From assembly GCF_056746865.1 (NCBI RefSeq), contig NZ_CM163382.1: 64,000 bases of DNA; one strand, given 5' to 3'. Shown here piece by piece: positions 30,799-50,376 of this stretch. Every line of letters starts with the position of its first letter. Positions within the stretch are counted from its first letter, which is position 1. The notes beneath the pieces are model-generated. The model made no database searches and was not told where the DNA came from. It saw only the letters and a program-made list of their open reading frames with translations. The translations under genes were made by a program, and so were the position numbers.

Positions 30799-31065
30799 AT
30801 GCGAGCAGCGTTTTGGGTAGGGTGTGCCGCTTTATTATTGTCGGCGTGTAGTAGTGAACCTGTTCAGCAGGCGACTGCGGCGCACGTAGCGCCAGGTTTA
30901 AAAGCGTCGATGTCCAGTAGTGGAGAAGCAAATTGTGCAATGATCGGCGGTTCGCTTTCTGTTGCCCGTCAACTGGATGGTACGGCGATTGGGATGTGTG
31001 CATTACCCAACGGCAAACGCTGTAGCGAACAGTCACTTGCCGCCGGGAGCTGTGGCAGCTATTAA
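30799..31065 (+). CDS. ydbJ: Small lipoprotein (DUF333), 88 aa
   Basis: lipobox LLLSAC; synteny. Confidence 0.75.
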   Translation: MRAAFWVGCAALLLSACSSEPVQQATAAHVAPGLKASMSSSGEANCAMIGGSLSVARQLDGTAIGMCALPNGKRCSEQSLAAGSCGSY

Positions 31066-31484
31066 TTCATTAAATCCGCCAGCTTATAAGTTAATGTCTG
31101 TTTCGCGGTCGCCAGCGTTAACTGGTTCGCGGTCAGATCCACTTGTGCACCTTCTTTCAGCATTTCGCTAATGGTGTTATCGAGTTCATTAAGCTGCGGG
31201 TTAGCGCACATCATACGGGTCATTGCCAGCCCTTTGGCTGTCAGTTCACCATTAGACAGTTTGCCTTCACCGCTAAAGCGGTTACACATGCTGCCGGAAA
31301 TCATCATCTTTTCACCAAAGCTGATTTCTGGCGGATTTTTATCGCTGGTCACGGGCTTACCGTTTACGCTTTCCAGCACAAAGCGATGATGCTGTAGCTG
31401 TTCTGGGGTTACAGCAATTTTGTCATTACTTACACATCCCGCCATCAGCAGGCTTAGCGCAACGAGCGCGGCTACTTTCTTCAT
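31062..31484 (-). CDS. hslJ: Heat-shock lipoprotein HslJ (META domain), 140 aa
   Basis: ORF 31062..31496; start set to internal Met for 140 aa; lipobox LMAGC. Confidence 0.85.
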   Translation of the reverse strand: MKKVAALVALSLLMAGCVSNDKIAVTPEQLQHHRFVLESVNGKPVTSDKNPPEISFGEKMMISGSMCNRFSGEGKLSNGELTAKGLAMTRMMCANPQLNELDNTISEMLKEGAQVDLTANQLTLATAKQTLTYKLADLMN

Positions 31485-31594
31485 TGTGGTTCTCAATTAC
31501 AGTTTCTGACTCAGGACTATTTTAAGAATAGAGGATGAAAGGTCTTTGGGGATTATCTGAATAAGCTCCCCTGGAATGCAGGGGAGCGGCAAGA

Positions 31595-32584
31595 TTAAAC
31601 CAGTTCGTTCGGGCAGGTTTCGCCTTTTTCCAGATTGCTTAAGTTTTGCAGCGTAGTCTGAGAAATACTGGTCAGTGCTTCTGCTGTCAGGAATGCCTGG
31701 TGCCCGGTAAACAGCACGTTGTGGCAGGCAGACAGACGACGGAATACGTCATCCTGGATCACGTCGTTGGATTTGTCTTCAAAGAACAGATCGCGTTCGT
31801 TCTCATACACGTCCATACCCAACGAACCAATTTTCTGATTTTTCAGCGCTTCAATTGCCGCCTGAGAATCAATCAATGCACCGCGACTGGTATTGACGAT
31901 CATCACGCCATTTTTCATCTGATCGAAGGCGGCTTCGTTCAACAGATGGTAGTTTTCCGGTGTCAGCGGGCAGTGCAGAGAGATAACGTCTGATTCAGAG
32001 AACAGGGTTGGCAGATCGACATACTCCACACCGAGTTCCAGTGCCGCCGCACTTGGATACGGATCGAATGCCAGCAGACGCATACCAAAACCTTTCAGAA
32101 TGCGCAGCATCGCCACACCGATTTTACCGGTACCGATAACGCCTGCCGTTTTGCCATACATAGTAAAGCCGGTCAGACCTTCCAGAGAGAAGTTGGCGTC
32201 ACGAGTACGCTGATACGCGCGATGAATACGGCGGTTCAGCGTCATCATCATACCGATGGCGTGTTCAGCAACGGCTTCTGGATCATAGGCTGGAACACGG
32301 ACTACTTTCAGCCCCAGTTCTTTTGCCGCGTCAAGGTCGACGTTATTAAAACCGGCACAGCGCAGGGCGATATATTTAACGCCGTGCTTTTTCAGCTCTT
32401 CCAGCACCGGGCGGCTGCCGTCATCGTTTACGAAAATACATACCGCTTCGCAGCCATTGGCAGTTTTAGCGGTTTTTTCCGTCAGCAGAAAGTCAAAAAA
32501 TTCCAGCTCAAAGCCAAAGGACTCGTTCACCTGTTGCAGGTACTTCTTGTCGTACTGTTTTGTGCTATAAACGGCGAGTTTCAT
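31595..32584 (-). CDS. ldhA: Fermentative D-lactate dehydrogenase (NAD-dependent), 329 aa
   Basis: D-isomer 2-hydroxyacid dehydrogenase motifs (GVIGTGKIG); synteny. Confidence 0.93.
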   Translation of the reverse strand: MKLAVYSTKQYDKKYLQQVNESFGFELEFFDFLLTEKTAKTANGCEAVCIFVNDDGSRPVLEELKKHGVKYIALRCAGFNNVDLDAAKELGLKVVRVPAYDPEAVAEHAIGMMMTLNRRIHRAYQRTRDANFSLEGLTGFTMYGKTAGVIGTGKIGVAMLRILKGFGMRLLAFDPYPSAAALELGVEYVDLPTLFSESDVISLHCPLTPENYHLLNEAAFDQMKNGVMIVNTSRGALIDSQAAIEALKNQKIGSLGMDVYENERDLFFEDKSNDVIQDDVFRRLSACHNVLFTGHQAFLTAEALTSISQTTLQNLSNLEKGETCPNELV

Positions 32585-32791
32585 AAGACTTTCTCCAGTG
32601 ATGTTGAATCACATTTAAGCTACTAAAAATATTTTACAAAATTTCAAATATAATTGAAAGCCATGGCGATATTGAAAAATTCATCAACAACTATGCTTAG
32701 TGTAGGCGCAACCTTCAACTGAACGGTTAAACATGCCACAATACCCGTATTGAATGCTTAATTTTTCGCTAAATCAGGATATTAACTACCC

Positions 32792-35431
32792 ATGCTGGGT
32801 AAATATAAAGCCGTTCTCGCGCTGTTATTACTGATTATTCTTGTGCCGTTGACGCTGCTGATGACGCTCGGCTTGTGGGTTCCCACGCTGGCGGGCATCT
32901 GGCTACCGCTCGGGACACGTATTGCATTAGATGAAAGCCCACGCATTACGCGTAAAGGTTTAATCATCCCCGATCTCCGTTATCTGGTGGGAGATTGTCA
33001 GCTTGCGCATATCACCAACGCCAGCCTTTCACATCCCAGCCGCTGGTTATTGAACGTCGGTACGGTAGAACTTGATTCTGCTTGTCTGGCGAAATTGCCG
33101 CAGACGGAGCAATCGCCAGCTGCTCCAAAAACCCTCGCGCAGTGGCAGGCCATGTTGCCTAACACCTGGATCAATATCGATAAACTGATTTTTTCTCCCT
33201 GGCAGGAATGGCAGGGAAAACTCTCTCTCGCATTAACCTCCGATATCCAGCAACTGCGTTATCAGGGCGAAAAAGTTAAATTTCAAGGCCAGCTGAAAGG
33301 GCAACAACTTACAGTCAGCGAACTGGATGTCGTCGCGTTTGAAAATCAGCCGCCGGTTAAACTGGTGGGGGAATTTACTATGCCGCTAGTGCCGGATGGA
33401 CTTCCTGTAAGTGGTCATGCTACTGCGACGTTAAACTTGCCGCAGGAGCCTTCACTGGTGGATGCCGAGCTGGACTGGCAGGAAAATAGCGGGCAATTGA
33501 TTGTGCTGGCACGGGATAATGGCGATCCGTTGCTCGATCTGCCGTGGCAAATTACTCGCCAACAATTGACTGTAAGCGATGGTCGCTGGAGCTGGCCGTA
33601 TGCAGGTTTTCCTTTGAGTGGCAGACTGGGTGTCAAAGTCGACAACTGGCAGGCAGGGCTCGAGAACGCTCTGGTCAGCGGACGACTGAGTGTGCTGACC
33701 CAGGGGCAAGCGGGTAAGGGCAACGCGGTGCTTAATTTTGGCCCTGGAAAATTAAGCATGGATAACAGCCAGCTGCCTTTGCAGCTGACCGGTGAAGCGA
33801 AACAGGCGGATCTCATTTTATATGCCCGCTTACCTGCGCAGCTAAGCGGAAGTCTGACTGACCCAACGCTGGCCTTTGAGCCAGGCGCGTTATTACGTTC
33901 GAAGGGAAGAGTCATCGATTCGCTGGACATCGATGAAATCCGCTGGCCTTTAGCGGGTGTAAAAGTCACCCAACGTGGTGTTGACGGACGTTTGCAGGCC
34001 ATTTTGCAGGCGCATGAAAATGAACTGGGCGATTTCGTGCTGCATATGGATGGGCTGGCGAATGATTTTCTCCCTGACGCTGGCCGCTGGCAGTGGCGCT
34101 ACTGGGGAAAAGGGAGTTTTACACCGATGAATGCCACCTGGGATGTTGCAGGAAAAGGTGAGTGGCATGACAGCACGATTACGCTGACCGATCTCTCCAC
34201 CGGTTTCGACCAGTTACAATACGGTACGATGACGGTAGAAAAGCCGCGATTAATTCTCGACAAGCCCGTCGTCTGGGTACGTGACGCACAGCATCCCTCC
34301 TTTAGCGGCGCGCTGTCACTGGACGCCGGGCAAACGCTGTTCACTGGCGGCAGTGTGTTACCGCCATCAACCTTAAAATTTAGCGTCGATGGACGCGATC
34401 CGACGTATTTCCTATATAAAGGCGATTTACATGCTGGTGAGATTGGCCCGGTTCGGGTAAATGGTCGCTGGGACGGTATTCGTCTGCGCGGTAACGCCTG
34501 GTGGCCTAAACAATCACTGACCGTATTCCAGCCGCTGGTGCCACCCGACTGGAAGATGAACTTACGCGATGGCGAACTGTATGCTCAGGTCGCATTTTCT
34601 GCTGCGCCTGAACAAGGATTCCGCGCGGGAGGGCACGGTGTGTTGAAAGGCGGTAGTGCCTGGATGCCAGATAATCAGGTTAACGGTGTCGATTTTGTCC
34701 TGCCTTTCCGTTTTGCCGATGGAGCCTGGCATCTGGGGACTCGCGGCCCCGTTACGTTGCGAATTGCCGAAGTGATTAATCTGGTGACAGCGAAAAATAT
34801 TACGGCTGATTTGCAAGGGCGCTATCCGTGGACAGAAGAAGAACCATTGTTGTTGACTGATGTTAGCGTCGATGTGTTAGGCGGTAACGTGCTGATGAAA
34901 CAATTACGTATGCCGCAACATGACCCGGCGCTGTTGCGGCTGAATAATCTCTCATCCAGCGAACTGGTTAGCGCCGTCAATCCGAAACAATTCGCCATGT
35001 CCGGGGCATTTAGTGGTGCATTGCCGTTATGGCTAAACAACGAAAAATGGATAGTGAAAGATGGCTGGCTGGCAAATAGCGGGCCAATGACCTTGCGGCT
35101 GGATAAAGACACCGCAGATGCGGTGGTGAAAGGCAATATGACTGCGGGTTCAGCAATTAACTGGTTGCGCTATATGGAAATTAGCCGTTCATCGACAAAT
35201 ATTAATTTAGATAATCTCGGTTTATTAACCATGCAGGCCAACATTACAGGTACCAGTCGCGTTGATGGTAAAAGCGGTACGGTAAACCTTAATTACCATC
35301 ATGAAGAGAATATTTTTACGCTGTGGCGCAGTTTACGCTTTGGCGATAATCTCCAGGCATGGTTGGAGCAGAACGCACGTCTGCCGGGAAATGACTGTCC
35401 GCAAGGAAAAGAGTGTGAGGAAAAACAATGA
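32792..35431 (+). CDS. ydbH: AsmA-like (TamB/YhdP paralogue) envelope protein YdbH, 879 aa
   Basis: N-terminal TM anchor followed by long beta-rich repeat region; stop overlaps ynbE start (ATGA). Confidence 0.88.
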   Translation: MLGKYKAVLALLLLIILVPLTLLMTLGLWVPTLAGIWLPLGTRIALDESPRITRKGLIIPDLRYLVGDCQLAHITNASLSHPSRWLLNVGTVELDSACLAKLPQTEQSPAAPKTLAQWQAMLPNTWINIDKLIFSPWQEWQGKLSLALTSDIQQLRYQGEKVKFQGQLKGQQLTVSELDVVAFENQPPVKLVGEFTMPLVPDGLPVSGHATATLNLPQEPSLVDAELDWQENSGQLIVLARDNGDPLLDLPWQITRQQLTVSDGRWSWPYAGFPLSGRLGVKVDNWQAGLENALVSGRLSVLTQGQAGKGNAVLNFGPGKLSMDNSQLPLQLTGEAKQADLILYARLPAQLSGSLTDPTLAFEPGALLRSKGRVIDSLDIDEIRWPLAGVKVTQRGVDGRLQAILQAHENELGDFVLHMDGLANDFLPDAGRWQWRYWGKGSFTPMNATWDVAGKGEWHDSTITLTDLSTGFDQLQYGTMTVEKPRLILDKPVVWVRDAQHPSFSGALSLDAGQTLFTGGSVLPPSTLKFSVDGRDPTYFLYKGDLHAGEIGPVRVNGRWDGIRLRGNAWWPKQSLTVFQPLVPPDWKMNLRDGELYAQVAFSAAPEQGFRAGGHGVLKGGSAWMPDNQVNGVDFVLPFRFADGAWHLGTRGPVTLRIAEVINLVTAKNITADLQGRYPWTEEEPLLLTDVSVDVLGGNVLMKQLRMPQHDPALLRLNNLSSSELVSAVNPKQFAMSGAFSGALPLWLNNEKWIVKDGWLANSGPMTLRLDKDTADAVVKGNMTAGSAINWLRYMEISRSSTNINLDNLGLLTMQANITGTSRVDGKSGTVNLNYHHEENIFTLWRSLRFGDNLQAWLEQNARLPGNDCPQGKECEEKQ

Positions 35432-35613
35432 AAATTTTACTGGCTGCGTTGACGTCATCTTTTATGCTGGTTGGCTGTACGCCTCGCATTGAAGTCGCTG
35501 CACCTAAGGAACCGATCACTATCAATATGAACGTTAAAATTGAGCATGAGATCATCATCAAGGCAGACAAAGATGTCGAAGAGCTGCTTGAGACTCGTAG
35601 CGATCTTTTCTGA
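35428..35613 (+). CDS. ynbE: Small lipoprotein YnbE, 61 aa
   Basis: lipobox MLVGC; translationally coupled to ydbH. Confidence 0.8.
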   Translation: MKILLAALTSSFMLVGCTPRIEVAAPKEPITINMNVKIEHEIIIKADKDVEELLETRSDLF

Positions 35614-35617
35614 GGCG

Positions 35618-35944
35618 ATGATGAAGAAAACATTACTTCTTTGTGCGTTTCTTGTTGGGCTGGTAAGCAGCAATGTAATGGCATTGACTCTGGATGAAGC
35701 CAGAACTCAGGGGCGGGTAGGTGAAACATTTTATGGTTATCTGGTTGCGCTGAAAACAGATGCTGAAACGCTGGAATTAGTAAAAGATATTAATGAAGCT
35801 CGTAATCTGAGTTACCAACAATTGGCAAAGCAAAATAATGTATCCACTGATGAGATAGCAAAATTGGCAGGGCAAAAAATGGTTGCTCGCGCGAAGCCGG
35901 GAGAATATGTGCAGGGGATTAATGGAAAATGGCTGCAAAAATAA
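35618..35944 (+). CDS. ydbL: Periplasmic protein YdbL (DUF1318), 108 aa
   Basis: ORF 35540..35944; start set to internal Met (MMKKTLLLCAFLVGLVSSNVMA signal peptide) for 108 aa. Confidence 0.8.
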   Translation: MMKKTLLLCAFLVGLVSSNVMALTLDEARTQGRVGETFYGYLVALKTDAETLELVKDINEARNLSYQQLAKQNNVSTDEIAKLAGQKMVARAKPGEYVQGINGKWLQK

Positions 35945-36369
35945 TTTCATATCCATATCCATATTCATTATGTTGCGCCATTTTGTGAATATTTAAGGGA
36001 AAATAAGTTCTGGACTAAGGCGATTTTTATTTGCATCTATTGAATTGTTATAAGTCCGATATAGGGGAGTGTCTATTTTATTTTTGATGGTTTTTTATGT
36101 GTAATTATAATTGTAAGAAATGTTATATTATTTAGTATTTACTGGGTGTATTGTTTTTTAATGCCTTAACCTCTTATTAAATATCATTTAAGTTGAATTG
36201 ACTTCAACGGATAGTATAAATTATTAGAACATCACATATTTTTGATTGGTTCTTTATTTATATTTCTTTCGTGAATATAAACACCAATCATGGTCTTGCG
36301 TTCCGTCAAAAAGGCCCGCTTTTATTTTTGTCGACTGGCGTGCAACGCTCTATTTCTAAGGAAATATAA

Positions 36370-39300
36370 ATGCAAAGGAAAAAATTGTTGTCTGTGTGTG
36401 TGGCGATGGCATTGAGCGGTCAGACATGGGCAACTGATACATCGATCCTGGATATAACTGATGACACCCGGAAATCCAGCAAGATCACATGTCCGGCGAA
36501 TATTCATTCTATTAGCAAAGAGCAGTTAGCTAAATTACCATCAGAATGTCGGGATTCTGATGACAGCGCCGTAATGAGCTGGACTGCAGCTGGCCTGGTT
36601 GCAGTCGTTACAGGAGCCGCGGTGATGGCGCTTAATGATGGTGATCATCATGACAGTTCAGAACCAGATGACGGTGGTGATACACCTGTTCCACCAGATG
36701 ACGGTGGTGATACACCTGTTCCACCAGATGACGGTGGTGATACACCTGTTCCTCCAGATGACGGTGGCGATACACCAGTTCCACCAGACGATGGTGGCGA
36801 TACACCAGTTCCACCAGACGACGGTGGTGATACACCTGTTCCTCCAGATGACGGTGGCGACGTCACTCCACCAAAAGAGCCCAAAATCTTCAATAACAGT
36901 GTCACATTCGACGAAGACAAAGGCACGCTGCAAATTCGCAATGCCACCTTTACCTACAGCAAAAACAGTGATGGAAGTTACACCCTGACGGCTGAAGATG
37001 GCCGAACCTCTATTGTGCAGGGCTGGGATGTCGACACCGATGCCAATACGGTAGAAATTACCGGCGTGAATAACCTTGGCGGTATGACGTGGTGTTACGG
37101 TAAAGACGGCATTATCTATATCACCAAAACCGTCGGCGCAACGGTGGATGACCCCGCGAACAGCAACGTATTTAACCTCAGCGATGCGGTGCTCACCGAC
37201 CAGGGCGGTAATGCCGCGCTGAATGGCGCGACGGTGATTGAAATAAACGGCAGCAGGATCGCCCTTAATAACGACGGTGATATTTCTGCTACGGGAAAAG
37301 ATTCTGTGGTTGTGGCGATAACCGGAAACGATATTACCGTTAACAATAACGGCCATATGGTTGTCGATGGCGGCACAGCGGGCGTGGTTAACGGCGATCG
37401 TGCAATCCTGAATAACCGCGGTGATGCAGTGATCACTAACGGCGGCACGGGTGTCATTGTGACGGGTGACAACGCGGTTATCAACAACATGGGGCAAAGC
37501 GATATTGATGGCGACAACTCGGTATCGGTAAAAGTTGCAGGAAACGCAACCAGAATCAGAATGGAAGGCGGGATCAATGTCAGCGGTGGCGCGCATGGCA
37601 TTGATGCCACCGGTGATAATAACGAAGTCAGCAACAAGGGCAACATTTCGGTGGTGGATGCGCATTCCACGGGCGTGCTGCTGAACGGCGATCGCGCGTC
37701 ATTCATTAATATGGGTGATATTAACGTTAGCGGAGGTGCAGCGGACGATCACTCTAATGGTGTGCAGATCAACGGCGATAACAGTACCTTTATCAACGTT
37801 GGAGATTTAAATGCCGACGACAGGGCGACCGGGGTGAAAATTAACGGTGACGCCAGCGACATTGCCCTGGCCGGGGCGATGCATGTCGGGGATTTTTCCA
37901 CCGGGCTGGAGGTGATGGGTAAAAACAATGATCTGTCGTTGTCCACCAATATGATGGATGTCACCGGGAAACAGTCCACCGGGGTGACCATTACAGGTGA
38001 TGATAATACCATTGATATCACCGGTGATATGGTCGTTGATCAAAACTCTGTCGGGGCGAAAATTGTCGGCGATCGCGTTTCGTTGCAACAGAAAGGTGAT
38101 ATTACCGTTAACGGTGCGGGGCACGGCGTTGAAGTCAGCGGTAGTAAGACGACAATCAATAATCAGGGCAAACTGACCGTAAAAGATCAAGACTCAATCG
38201 GTATCGTTATCACCGGAGATGACGCGCAATTTACTACCGTGGGTGAGATTGATGTCTCGCTGAACGGTACGGGTGTTGCGATCAGCGGCGATCGTGAACA
38301 AGTGAATTTGAGCGGTGATATAAATGTCATTCAGGAGCGTGACGGCAGCGGTACTTTCCAGGGCGGAACGGGCATCAGCATAATGAGCAACGACAGCAGT
38401 ATGCTGTTGACGGGAAACATTAATGTGACGTCCAGTATGGGGGACCAACCGTCCACCTCACCCCAGTCGTTAACCGGCGTTACCATCGAGGGGGAAAACA
38501 ATACTGTCGATCTGGAAGGCGACATCAATATTACTGTCGATTCGGATTACCTGGGGGATGAAAACAGTCTTTACGGCGTGGTTGTTTTGGGTACAAACAA
38601 CACCATCAATCTCGATGGTGGTATCAATATCTCTGGTGATAGTGGTGGACATACTATCAAAGGTGTGCAGGTAACAGGAAATAATACCGTCAATATAAGT
38701 GGTCATTCCGTAATGAATACCCGACAGATATTGGGATCCTTCTCTCTGATTTCGGTGGCTGATGGCGGGAATGTCATATTTGATGAAAACGCGATAACCG
38801 AGATTCAGAGTTCAGTGAGAGATAGTGACTATCTTTTTTTCGATGCATCGTTAATTGTTGCTACGGGAAACCAGTCTGTTATTCAGAACAACGGCATTAT
38901 TAATACAACCGATGCTCAAGAATTAATGATGGCGAATTCGGGGGCGCAAGTTGTCAATGCCGGGGTGATTAATATCAGGCCAGATGCTGAATCACACACT
39001 TTCTTTGCTGGAATGATGGCAAGAAGCGATGACTCGCAGGCAAAAAATGCCTCCGGAGGAACAATCAATCTGACATCCATTACCCGGCCTTTTAGCAGCG
39101 GAGGATTTAACGAGCGCCCGATCAAATGGTATCACAACACGGGTTATGCCTTGTTGGCCAGTAATTACGGATCGGTAATCAATGAAACAGGAGCAACCAT
39201 TAATTTGCATGGTGCAGGAACCTATGGTGTTTCCGCTTCAAAAGGAACGGCGACCAATGCGGGCGAGATAAATGTCGACGGCTTTGTTCCAATAGTAGAT

Positions 39301-42189
39301 GAAAACGGTAATATTATTGATGAAACTTACTGGCAGACCAATTCCGTATATCTGATGGGGGGCGGGATGTTGGCAGGTTCAACGGATACCGGCGACGGTG
39401 ATGCTAAAGCGGTGAATACCGGTATCATCAACGTTAAGAATGAAGGCTTCGGCATGCTGGCGATGAACGGTGGGACCGTTGTAAACCAAGGGACAATCAA
39501 TCTCACCGCCGATGAGGGCGTGACGAAGCAGCAAGATAACCAACTGTTCGCGATGGGAGCCATTCAGGGTGGTCTGGCGATTAATGACCAGGATGGGGTT
39601 ATTAATATTAACACTGATATTGGCCAGGCGTTTTATAAAGATGGCACCGGCACCATTCTCAACTATGGAAAAATTAATCTTTTCGGTAATCCAATGGATG
39701 AAAGTGATTCCCACATTGGCGTTACGCCGGATGACAAAGATATTCTCAGTGAGCTGTCTGGCAGCGGCGAGAGCATCAGTAAAACTACAACTAGCGACGG
39801 TTTTATCGCAGTTAATAACCTGGCAAACTATGGCGACGAAACGCTTAACGGCGACGTTATAGCAAATGGCTGGATATTCAACCAACCTGATGCCAGCCTA
39901 ACAATCAACGGCGAACTGAGCGTAAACCAGGGGTTGGAAAACAGTGGTCACCTGGATGTTGACAGCATTAACAGCAAAACCACGATATATAACCGTGAAA
40001 CAGGGAGCATAACAACCGATCTGCTGACGTTGAATGGCGCGGTTTCCTTCTTTAATGAAGGCGAATTTAATGGTTCAATTACCGGAGACAGCTACCAACA
40101 GAATGTGGTGAATACCGATGAAATGACGGTGACCGAAGATGGCCACTCACTCGTCAACGGAAGTTTCCTGTTCTTCAATGAGGCTGGCGCGACCCTGACA
40201 AATAGCGGTAATGCGGTAACGGGCGGGGAAAACGCGATTATTCATGTAACCAGAACCAGTGATTCTGTTTCGCAGGTTAACCGTGGCACCATCACGGCCA
40301 CAAATGGCTATAGCGCAATCAAAACTGAAAATACTGGCTCGAACAGTAACGGGAAATGGATTTGGAATACGGAAACAGGAGTGATAAATGGTATTAATCC
40401 TGCTGCACCGTTGGTTGATTTAGGACGAGGTTATAACTTTGCTAACGCTGGCGTTATTAATGTTCAGGGCGATAATGCAGTGGGCATCAGTGGCGGCACA
40501 ACCAGCTATGTTGTCCAGTTGGTGAACAGTGGCATCATTAATGTGGGTACTGAGCAGGGGCAACTGGATGGAACCAACGGCGAAGGTTTAATTGGTATTA
40601 AGGGCAATGGTCGGGAAACGACAATTAATAACACGCAAACGGGTGTGATTAATGTCTATGCCGATAACTCCTGGGCGTTTGGTGGGCAAACGAAAGCCAT
40701 CATTAACAACGGTGAAATTAATCTGCTGTGTGACACCGGATGCGATATTTATGCTCCAGGAACGACGGGGGCGCAAAACGATCACAACGGTACTGCGGAT
40801 ATTACCGTACCAGAGGCATCAACCACGCCGCCACAAGGTAATGTTCCAACGCCACCTGTCGATTCAAATGCACCGCAACTGCTGAGCAACTATACCATTG
40901 GTACCAACAGCGACGGGAGTTCGGGTACGCTCAGCGCGAATAACCTGGTTATTGGCGACAACGTGAGTGTTAACGCCGGGTTTAGTGCAGGAACTGCGGA
41001 CACCACCGTTGTCGTTAACGATGTATTCAAAGGCGAAAACATCAGCGGTGTGGATAACATCGTTTCCTCTACTGTTGTCTGGAACGCTAAAGGCAGCACC
41101 GATGCCAGCGGCAACGTTGACGTCACTATGAGCAAAAACGCTTATACCGATGTGGCGACCGATGCTTCGGTGAATGACGTCGCGAAAGCACTGGATGCGG
41201 GTTACACCAACAACGAGCTGTATACCAGCCTGAACGTCGGCACGACTGCCGAACTGAACAGTGCCCTGAAACAGGTCAGCGGTAGCCAGGCGACCACGGT
41301 ATTCCGCGAAGCGCGCGTGCTAAGCAACCGCTTTAGCATGCTGGCGGATGCCGCACCGAAAGTGGGTAACGGTCTGGCGTTCAACGTTGTTGCGAAAGGC
41401 GATCCGCGCGCGGAGCTGGGGAACAATACCGAGTACGACATGCTGGCATTGCGTAAAACCATCGACCTGAGCGAAAGCCAGACGATGAGTCTGGAGTACG
41501 GTATCGCGCGCCTCGATGGCGACGGTGCGCAGAAAGCGGGTGATAATGGCGTTACAGGCGGTTATAGCCAGTTCTTTGGCCTGAAACATCAGATGTCCTT
41601 CGACAACGGCATGAACTGGAATAACGCATTGCGTTATGACGTTCACAACCTTGACAGCAGCCGTTCGATTGCATTTAGCAACACAAACAAAACGGCTGAT
41701 ACCGACGTGAAGCAGCAGTACCTGGAGTTCCGCAGCGAAGGGGCGAAGACTTTCGAACCGAGCGAAGGACTGAAGGTTACGCCATATGCGGGTGTTAAAC
41801 TGCGTCACACACTGGAAGGTGGCTATCAAGAGCGCAATGCCGGAGACTTTAACCTGAATATGAACAGTGGCAGCGAAACGGCGGTGGACAGCATCGTCGG
41901 GTTGAAACTGGATTACGCAGGTAAAGACGGCTGGAGCGCTAGCGCTACGCTGGAAGGCGGGCCGAACCTGAGCTACGCGAAGAGCCAGCGTACGGCAAGC
42001 CTGGCAGGCGCAGGCAGTCAGCACTTTAATGTCGATGACGGTCAGAAGGGCGGCGGCATCAACAGCCTGGCAAGCGTCGGCGTGAAGTACAGCAGCAAAG
42101 AAAGTTCGCTGAATCTGGATGCTTACCACTGGAAAGAGGACGGCATCAGCGATAAAGGCGTGATGCTGAACTTCAAGAAAACGTTCTAA
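36370..42189 (+). CDS. ydbA: Large autotransporter (type Va) adhesin-like protein, 1939 aa, uninterrupted
   Basis: signal peptide, six full DDGGDTPVPP decapeptide repeats, long Gly/Asn/Thr-rich beta-helix-like passenger, C-terminal approx 280-aa beta-barrel ending ...VMLNFKKTF. Confidence 0.85.
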   Translation: MQRKKLLSVCVAMALSGQTWATDTSILDITDDTRKSSKITCPANIHSISKEQLAKLPSECRDSDDSAVMSWTAAGLVAVVTGAAVMALNDGDHHDSSEPDDGGDTPVPPDDGGDTPVPPDDGGDTPVPPDDGGDTPVPPDDGGDTPVPPDDGGDTPVPPDDGGDVTPPKEPKIFNNSVTFDEDKGTLQIRNATFTYSKNSDGSYTLTAEDGRTSIVQGWDVDTDANTVEITGVNNLGGMTWCYGKDGIIYITKTVGATVDDPANSNVFNLSDAVLTDQGGNAALNGATVIEINGSRIALNNDGDISATGKDSVVVAITGNDITVNNNGHMVVDGGTAGVVNGDRAILNNRGDAVITNGGTGVIVTGDNAVINNMGQSDIDGDNSVSVKVAGNATRIRMEGGINVSGGAHGIDATGDNNEVSNKGNISVVDAHSTGVLLNGDRASFINMGDINVSGGAADDHSNGVQINGDNSTFINVGDLNADDRATGVKINGDASDIALAGAMHVGDFSTGLEVMGKNNDLSLSTNMMDVTGKQSTGVTITGDDNTIDITGDMVVDQNSVGAKIVGDRVSLQQKGDITVNGAGHGVEVSGSKTTINNQGKLTVKDQDSIGIVITGDDAQFTTVGEIDVSLNGTGVAISGDREQVNLSGDINVIQERDGSGTFQGGTGISIMSNDSSMLLTGNINVTSSMGDQPSTSPQSLTGVTIEGENNTVDLEGDINITVDSDYLGDENSLYGVVVLGTNNTINLDGGINISGDSGGHTIKGVQVTGNNTVNISGHSVMNTRQILGSFSLISVADGGNVIFDENAITEIQSSVRDSDYLFFDASLIVATGNQSVIQNNGIINTTDAQELMMANSGAQVVNAGVINIRPDAESHTFFAGMMARSDDSQAKNASGGTINLTSITRPFSSGGFNERPIKWYHNTGYALLASNYGSVINETGATINLHGAGTYGVSASKGTATNAGEINVDGFVPIVDENGNIIDETYWQTNSVYLMGGGMLAGSTDTGDGDAKAVNTGIINVKNEGFGMLAMNGGTVVNQGTINLTADEGVTKQQDNQLFAMGAIQGGLAINDQDGVININTDIGQAFYKDGTGTILNYGKINLFGNPMDESDSHIGVTPDDKDILSELSGSGESISKTTTSDGFIAVNNLANYGDETLNGDVIANGWIFNQPDASLTINGELSVNQGLENSGHLDVDSINSKTTIYNRETGSITTDLLTLNGAVSFFNEGEFNGSITGDSYQQNVVNTDEMTVTEDGHSLVNGSFLFFNEAGATLTNSGNAVTGGENAIIHVTRTSDSVSQVNRGTITATNGYSAIKTENTGSNSNGKWIWNTETGVINGINPAAPLVDLGRGYNFANAGVINVQGDNAVGISGGTTSYVVQLVNSGIINVGTEQGQLDGTNGEGLIGIKGNGRETTINNTQTGVINVYADNSWAFGGQTKAIINNGEINLLCDTGCDIYAPGTTGAQNDHNGTADITVPEASTTPPQGNVPTPPVDSNAPQLLSNYTIGTNSDGSSGTLSANNLVIGDNVSVNAGFSAGTADTTVVVNDVFKGENISGVDNIVSSTVVWNAKGSTDASGNVDVTMSKNAYTDVATDASVNDVAKALDAGYTNNELYTSLNVGTTAELNSALKQVSGSQATTVFREARVLSNRFSMLADAAPKVGNGLAFNVVAKGDPRAELGNNTEYDMLALRKTIDLSESQTMSLEYGIARLDGDGAQKAGDNGVTGGYSQFFGLKHQMSFDNGMNWNNALRYDVHNLDSSRSIAFSNTNKTADTDVKQQYLEFRSEGAKTFEPSEGLKVTPYAGVKLRHTLEGGYQERNAGDFNLNMNSGSETAVDSIVGLKLDYAGKDGWSASATLEGGPNLSYAKSQRTASLAGAGSQHFNVDDGQKGGGINSLASVGVKYSSKESSLNLDAYHWKEDGISDKGVMLNFKKTF
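36667..36870 (+). repeat. In-frame 30-bp tandem repeat array inside ydbA (six full units plus a degenerate seventh)
   Basis: gatgacggtggtgatacacctgttccacca repeated with synonymous variation; encodes DDGGDTPVPP. Confidence 0.9.

Positions 42190-47312: not shown

Positions 47313-50376
<3,064 letters not shown>

Follow-up and report, generated by a model that had tools for sequence, protein, structure and literature searches.

The ydbH-ynbE-ydbL operon in an Escherichia coli genome: genes for a bridge thought to carry phospholipids between the membranes, with an uncommon ydbL variant

Introduction

When one long gene and two very short ones are packed end to end on the same strand, do they encode the parts of a single machine, are those parts made in fixed proportion, and does a particular copy of the genes add anything to what is known of them? 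We considered these questions for ydbH-ynbE-ydbL, found in that order at positions 32792-35944 on the plus strand of a 64,000-nucleotide (nt) stretch of DNA (contig NZ_CM163382.1 of RefSeq assembly GCF_056746865.1), which is called the window below. The arrangement was read from a six-frame list of open reading frames (ORFs) and from the raw sequence. A preliminary description, made from the letters alone, had taken the genes for an overlapping operon that implies stoichiometric co-expression of an AsmA/TamB-like protein, a lipoprotein and a periplasmic protein, in a layout consistent with intermembrane lipid transport.

Our answer is that the segment is very probably the E. coli ydbH-ynbE-ydbL operon, coding for an inner-to-outer-membrane bridge that is thought to carry phospholipids. 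The gene identities, the junctions, the targeting signals and the conservation of the locus were established in the present analysis. The genes, their overlap and coupling, the interactions of the products and the structure of YdbL have all been published already, and the sole novelty of the window is an uncommon natural variant of ydbL.

Identity of the three genes

The 3.8-kb stretch that holds the genes matches 5,417 of 5,426 complete E. coli genomes, in which it is annotated as ydbH, ynbE and ydbL. As far as position 47348 only three single-nucleotide polymorphisms separate the window from E. coli CFSAN061770 (NZ_CP023142.1); at that point an indel puts the two sequences out of register. 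On the other side of ydbH lies ldhA, on the minus strand (31595-32584) and thus divergent from it. Table 1 gives the coordinates of the features. The gene products named in the preliminary description, namely an 879-residue YdbH, a 61-residue YnbE lipoprotein and a periplasmic YdbL, agree with the Pfam, NCBIfam and RefSeq assignments.

Table 1. Features of the ydbH-ynbE-ydbL segment (positions in the window; aa, amino acids)
Feature	Position	Strand	Basis
ydbH, 879-aa inner-membrane-anchored AsmA-like (repeating beta-groove) protein, ATG start	32792-35431	+	ORF, Pfam, NCBIfam
ynbE, 61-aa outer-membrane lipoprotein precursor, mature 45 aa from Cys17	35428-35613	+	ORF, PF13617, lipobox
ydbL, periplasmic DUF1318 protein, chaperone-like modulator of YnbE, 107 aa	35621-35944	+	ORF, PF07027, RefSeq start
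ATGA stop/start overlap of ydbH and ynbE, termination-reinitiation site	35428-35431	+	sequence
GAGGA Shine-Dalgarno motif inside ydbH, 6 nt 5' of ynbE ATG	35417-35421	+	sequence; identical in K-12
GAGG Shine-Dalgarno motif for ydbL, overlapping ynbE stop codon	35612-35615	+	sequence
ldhA-ydbH intergenic region, 207 nt; presumed ydbH operon promoter, site not located	32585-32791	.	sequence
Divergent 3' part of ydbL (mosaic allele), left edge of strain-variable segment to ~41073	35770-35944	+	identity to K-12

For YdbH, the Pfam model PF11739 (YdbH-like) scores 968.8 bits against a cut-off of 26.3 (E = 6e-291), with residues 14-862 aligned on positions 1-892 of the 893 in the profile, and the NCBIfam equivalog model NF007971/PRK10695 gives 1398.2 bits against a cut-off of 824, which places the protein in the family over its full length. 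PF11739 is the only Pfam family assigned; no Pfam AsmA or TamB model scores on the protein, even at E <= 10. YdbH of the window shares 99.2% amino acid identity with the K-12 protein (7 substitutions). Its sole strongly hydrophobic segment is N-terminal, at about residues 6-40, and Kyte-Doolittle windows of 19 residues exceeding 1.6 start only at residues 1-22 across the 879 residues. By this hydropathy test YdbH is predicted to carry a single N-terminal transmembrane anchor, the remainder being periplasmic. A sequence search of the PDB with YdbH returned no solved relative, and the elongated beta-groove fold with a hydrophobic interior is the one predicted by the models in the literature (PMC11126948). 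The introduction of that paper states a length of 869 residues, compared with 879 in the window ORF and in the K-12 RefSeq protein; as the NCBIfam model aligns from residue 1, the smaller figure is probably a typographical error.

YnbE is recognized by PF13617 (YnbE-like lipoprotein; E = 3e-16, 59.3 bits against a cut-off of 25.8). It has the lipobox LVGC at residues 14-17, as a lipoprotein should, with Thr at position +2. It is 100% identical to K-12 YnbE over the 61 residues, including the beta-strand I30-I38 and the helix K48-T56, and its residue numbering agrees with the description of the strand and the C-terminal helix in PMC11126948.

YdbL is recognized by PF07027 (E = 1e-29, 103 bits against a cut-off of 27), and its signal peptide ends in VMA. 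The PDB entry 28oj, "Probable chaperone-like protein YdbL", is matched at E = 3.4e-44 from the mature N-terminus LTLDEA onwards, with 12 substitutions in 86 aligned residues. The start of the gene needs some care. The ynbE stop codon is followed by the 4 nt GGCG and then by two in-frame ATG codons, at 35618 (a gap of 4 nt, 108 residues) and at 35621 (a gap of 7 nt, 107 residues). The spacing of 4 nt and the length of 108 residues in the preliminary description hold for the first ATG, while the second is used by RefSeq in the near-identical CFSAN061770 and by the homologous K-12 annotation; K-12 YdbL has 108 residues owing to an extra C-terminal Phe and not to the first ATG. The GAGG motif leaves only 2 nt before the first ATG but 5 nt before the second, which makes the latter the better-supported start. 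Mature YdbL is the same from either start, the signal peptide being removed. The junction between ynbE and ydbL, TGAGGYGATGATG, is kept in six divergent E. coli alleles, and K-12 has the same one.

Conservation was followed beyond E. coli. An exhaustive profile-free search with YdbL gave 971 representative clusters at E <= 0.001, and the genomic context was looked up for five relatives with 33-48% identity. Four of these were usable and correspond to six loci (L006-L011); the fifth, P0261, is on a 666-nt contig (L012) without annotated neighbours. A Lipoprotein_19 gene is found immediately 5' of the DUF1318 gene in all six loci, and a YdbH-like gene is found 5' of the Lipoprotein_19 gene in every locus where the contig extends that far. 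The ydbH/ynbE and ynbE/ydbL junctions measure -14/+47 nt in L006, +26/+17 nt in L007 and +2/+9 nt in L010. Both the tight packing and the gene order are conserved in these distant relatives.

Several other matches were recorded. Proteins of 155-173 residues resembling YnbE-YdbL fusions (P0009, P0010, P0012, P0014 and P0018, from metagenome and Logan assemblies, with both Pfam domains) have frameshifted or deleted junctions and were set aside as artefacts or rare mutants. The public protein P0232 (219 residues), distantly related to YdbL, aligns with the query over two stretches and is possibly a tandem DUF1318 protein. Five of the matches to the locus among the E. coli genomes come from records with a plasmid label, and in some genomes ydbL-like sequence occurs at two places. 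Two long antisense ORFs inside ydbH/ydbL, of 195 residues at 33415-34002 and of 137 residues at 35316-35729, were treated as chance ORFs. A scan of 31000-37500 against Rfam at E <= 1 was without a hit, so that no known RNA family is represented within the operon or next to it.

Published function and its bearing on the window

YdbH, YhdP and TamB are AsmA-like proteins, mutually redundant and needed for lipid homeostasis of the outer membrane (PMC8593681). Kumar, Davis and Ruiz found that deletion of ynbE, like deletion of ydbH, is lethal without TamB and YhdP (tamB deletion combined with YhdP depletion), that YnbE is located in the outer membrane and multimerises, and that YdbH cross-links in vivo at W791 and W857 in a YnbE-dependent manner, which makes the pair an inner-to-outer-membrane bridge (PMC11126948). 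A continuous hydrophobic groove is predicted for YdbH-YnbE, and function is lost when prolines are put into the YnbE strand I30-I38 (PMC11126948). The requirement is not confined to E. coli: in P. aeruginosa, YnbE (PA5306) is likewise required for the function of YdbH (PA5307) (PMC12447247). The K-12 findings are relevant to the window because the proteins tested share 100% (YnbE) and 99.2% (YdbH) identity with its own; both W791 and W857 are kept.

The third protein has a different standing. YdbL is dispensable for YdbH/YnbE function, yet it influences YdbH levels and YnbE multimers (PMC11126948), and its excess is lethal in a strain lacking yhdP and tamB (PMC11126948; 10.64898/2026.03.16.712125). 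A 2026 preprint reports a 2.12-Å structure of YdbL, an interface with the C-terminal helix of YnbE mapped by nuclear magnetic resonance, and loss-of-function substitutions; YdbL is moreover a DegP substrate unless bound to YnbE (bioRxiv 10.64898/2026.03.16.712125). YdbL is a dose-sensitive chaperone-like modulator and not a demonstrated structural subunit.

The two checks proposed in the preliminary description have thus been carried out in K-12 by others. Complex models from MultiFold2 and AlphaFold-Multimer have been published and experimentally validated (PMC11126948; 10.64898/2026.03.16.712125), and the synthetic lethality with yhdP and tamB is that reported above. The suggestion of an intermembrane lipid-transport assembly matches the published role (PMC8593681, PMC11126948) and is supported in substance.

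Expression of the three genes

The overlap of the ydbH stop with the ynbE start was found in the raw sequence as described, with the ydbH TGA at 35429-35431 and the ynbE ATG at 35428-35430. Both marks of a pair coupled by termination and reinitiation, an ATGA and an internal Shine-Dalgarno motif, are present, and this junction is retained in six divergent E. coli alleles. Among co-directional E. coli genes no spacing is commoner than an overlap of -4, and 24% of unidirectional pairs are within -8 to +6 nt (PMC10666635); the overlap is real but ordinary. Its meaning can nevertheless be read here, because the junction is identical in six E. coli alleles and experiments were performed on the same gene pair. 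Huber et al. tested ydbH/ynbE itself and found that translation of ynbE requires ribosomes reaching the overlap, and that the internal Shine-Dalgarno motif is strictly essential for reinitiation at ynbE (PMC6728339). The K-12 fragment used in that assay (-99 to +30) differs from the window by one base, at 35363.

We propose that a single transcript would tie the expression of the three genes, and that ribosomes ending ydbH at the ATGA would reinitiate at ynbE, aided by the internal GAGGA. With its own GAGG and a start 4-7 nt on, ydbL may be coupled to ynbE or locally initiated. Co-transcription is inferred because of the spacing of -4 and +4/+7 nt and the coupling experiments. The opposite would be three adjacent genes that are independently expressed and functionally unrelated. 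Two weak promoter-like matches on the plus strand within the operon, at 34920-34948 and 35812-35839, would suit such a view; the consensus scan gave 6 promoter-like matches against 6.5 expected from shuffles, which is chance level. A terminator together with a promoter would not fit into gaps of -4 and +4/+7 nt, translation of ynbE is dependent on that of ydbH (PMC6728339), the proteins interact physically and genetically, and the order of the genes persists in relatives whose YdbL is as little as 34% identical. We give this view practically no probability. Independent expression of unrelated genes, which the preliminary description had named as the outcome that would overturn it, is already refuted by the published coupling, cross-links and genetics.

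A closer competitor is a fixed structural complex of YdbH, YnbE and YdbL in equimolar 1:1:1 proportion, the overlap being there to enforce the stoichiometry. AlphaFold-Multimer models built at 1:1:1 do seat YnbE and YdbL on the C-terminus of YdbH (PMC11126948). On the other hand, YnbE forms multimers and may enter the complex in more than one copy; excess YdbL is lethal where the cell depends on YdbH/YnbE, and unbound YdbL is degraded by DegP. As to the overlap, a greater distance between stop and start lowers reinitiation, and the efficiency of reinitiation is specific to each gene pair (PMC10666635), so coupling sets a ratio which is not necessarily 1:1. The equimolar complex is therefore unlikely in our estimate. 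For the stoichiometric co-expression of the preliminary description, translational coupling stands (PMC6728339); the word stoichiometric goes too far, since coupling means proportional and not necessarily equimolar synthesis, and since YnbE multimerises and YdbL is a dose-sensitive modulator.

A bridge between the membranes

In the reading we prefer, YdbH would be held in the inner membrane by one N-terminal helix, and the YnbE strand I30-I38 would join the last strand of YdbH, completing a bridge to the outer membrane, with YnbE possibly stacked on YdbH as a short oligomer. Phospholipids would slide along it, a role in which YhdP and TamB are redundant with the bridge. Secreted YdbL would bind the C-terminal helix of YnbE and curb its runaway, amyloid-like multimerisation, and as a result of this restraint the amount of YdbL relative to YdbH/YnbE would matter. 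The YdbH-YnbE interaction, the genetic redundancy, the binding of YdbL to YnbE and the coupling of ydbH with ynbE have been shown in the literature. Passage of lipids along the groove, the direction of that passage, how many YnbE molecules take part and any coupling of ynbE with ydbL are inferred, here as in the literature.

Several points weigh against this reading. The authors of PMC11126948 themselves note that lipid transport lacks biochemical proof, and the 1:1 model of YdbH-YnbE in that paper is about 180 Å long compared with a periplasm of about 250 Å. As for the ends of the transcript, the consensus scan, with promoter and terminator counts at chance level, gave no sigma-70-like site at its threshold in the 207-nt ldhA-ydbH spacer and no intrinsic terminator directly after ydbL, and folding of 35930-36080 gave no terminator-like hairpin (z = +0.99 against shuffles). 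A weak AGGA is located 11 nt 5' of the ydbH ATG. The exact ATGA overlap is not kept in the distant relatives, whose corresponding junctions are -14, +26 and +2 nt. Finally, Huber et al. reported a predicted RNA structure that would block de novo initiation at ynbE (PMC6728339). The junction RNA of the window (35329-35458, i.e. -99 to +30) folds at -27.4 kcal/mol with z = +1.26 against shuffles, that is, with no extra stability, and therefore the occluding structure is unsupported by this test.

The lack of biochemical proof of transport also speaks for another account, in which YdbH-YnbE would tether the envelope, or would help to assemble other outer-membrane components, and would act on lipid homeostasis indirectly and not by carrying phospholipids in its groove. 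The paralogue TamB acts with TamA, and the TAM complex has been linked to autotransporter transport and outer-membrane protein insertion; in the window an autotransporter gene comes directly 3' of ydbL, and neither the consensus scan nor folding of the 3' flank revealed a terminator between them. This account has to contend with a redundancy with YhdP and TamB that concerns lipid homeostasis specifically, with the predicted continuous groove and the loss of function by prolines in the YnbE strand, and with distant loci that have no autotransporter beside the operon. We regard it as distinctly unlikely, and prefer the lipid bridge.

The mosaic ydbL allele and the region downstream

What is particular to the window begins inside ydbL. 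Per 100 nt, identity to K-12 stands at 95-100% from ldhA through ydbH and ynbE to the first ~135 nt of ydbL; three windows in ydbH are lower, at 92-93%, and the beginning of ydbL is 99-100% K-12-like. Within ydbL identity falls to 78-86% per 100 nt and is then lost past the stop codon. Only from 41074 on, where the sequence codes for the C-terminal portion of the autotransporter, is there homology to K-12 again, namely to ydbA. The last ~186 nt of ydbL have 77% DNA identity to K-12 and 85% to the O157:H7-type allele. It was found that E. coli ydbL falls into three deep classes: K-12-like (~4,890 genomes), O157:H7-like (375) and the mosaic type of the window (143). The O157:H7-like class is divergent over the whole gene plus part of ynbE. 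Across these classes ynbE and ydbH stay 96-100% identical. At >=99% identity, the window allele is present in 143 of 5,411 complete E. coli genomes.

In K-12 numbering, the YdbL of the window has 12 substitutions (E51L, K52E, A55K, A59E, E60A, K62N, A63L, V76T, D78E, L87M, V105L and R106Q) and is without the C-terminal F108. We checked the residues that function was reported to require, namely L24, R28, E35, Y40, N58, R61, Y65, L68, N72, I79, K86, L87, R90, W104 and K107, and all are retained save for the conservative L87M. At L87 only alanine was tried, giving a partial loss; E60A was reported to be functional (10.64898/2026.03.16.712125), and alanine is the residue found at position 60 in the window. 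From these comparisons the variant would be expected to function normally. One may ask whether the allele alters the strength or duration of the hold of YdbL on YnbE, so that the lineages carrying it set the YdbH-YnbE bridge differently. The 3' half of the allele stems from another lineage: A59E/E60A, K62N/A63L and L87M are found there, and the C-terminus, adjacent to W104/K107, is altered. We consider such an effect very unlikely.

Downstream of ydbL, K-12 has feaR-feaB-tynA-paaZ...paaY, up to the ydbA gene disrupted by insertion sequences, and this fea-tynA-paa cluster is absent from the window. It is replaced (35945-41073) by a 425-nt AT-rich spacer, which no more than 141 genomes have, followed by a strain-specific autotransporter passenger region. 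The ydbA-like autotransporter ORF is intact, with 1,939 residues at 36370-42189 on the plus strand, while K-12 ydbA is a pseudogene disrupted by IS2/IS30. The ORF includes a 30-nt tandem repeat (6.5 copies, 36663-36857) that encodes PPDDGGDTPV repeats. A promoter-like site with 10 of 12 matches is located at 36084-36111, between ydbL and the autotransporter gene. The lineages with the mosaic allele are likewise without fea-tynA-paa and have an intact autotransporter gene directly 3' of ydbL, with no terminator found before it. As a further possibility, read-through from ydbL could link the expression of the bridge with that of the autotransporter.

Some annotation matters were observed in the same region. 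The giant ydbA-like gene 3' of ydbL is named "EntS/YbdA MFS transporter" by RefSeq in E. coli R9 and 317 (L013, 5408-8325; L014, 4706-8325), and the label is probably a mix-up of the names ydbA and ybdA. The ynbA-ynbD cluster, about 10 kb 3' of the ydbH operon, has the RefSeq labels of phospholipid-type enzymes, namely CDP-alcohol phosphatidyltransferase, phosphatidate cytidylyltransferase and PAP2 phosphatase. In this cluster ynbC is an intact ORF of 585 residues at 47313-49070 on the plus strand; it is annotated as frameshifted in CFSAN061770, with the register lost at 47348.

Significance and comparison with known systems

The route of phospholipids to the Gram-negative outer membrane was for long a gap in knowledge, and three redundant bridges, YdbH-YnbE among them, have been proposed to close it. 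To this question the window itself contributes nothing. All that might be of use to specialists is the series of natural E. coli ydbL alleles, in three deep classes that keep the mapped residues, which could serve as a ready set of tolerated substitutions.

The closest system is the K-12 operon (b1381-b1383), which is the same locus, between ldhA and the variable fea/paa/ydbA region, with the same gene order and the same junctions at both gene boundaries. It differs from the window in two respects: ydbL of the window is mosaic, and the gene that follows is an intact autotransporter gene of 1,939 residues in the window compared with fea-tynA-paa in K-12. When compared with the other two bridges, YdbH resembles TamB-TamA and YhdP in having an N-terminal anchor in the inner membrane and an elongated periplasmic beta-groove, and the three are collectively essential and redundant for lipid homeostasis. 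YdbH is much shorter than TamB and YhdP, and the outer-membrane partners differ. The partner of TamB is the Omp85 barrel TamA and that of YhdP is its built-in C-terminal region, whereas YdbH is completed by a lipoprotein of only 45 residues through beta-strand augmentation. For the restraint of YnbE multimerisation by YdbL, the authors of PMC11126948 drew an analogy with CsgC-CsgA, for which no sequence relationship is claimed; unlike CsgC-CsgA, YdbL binds the C-terminal helix of YnbE and not the polymerising strand.

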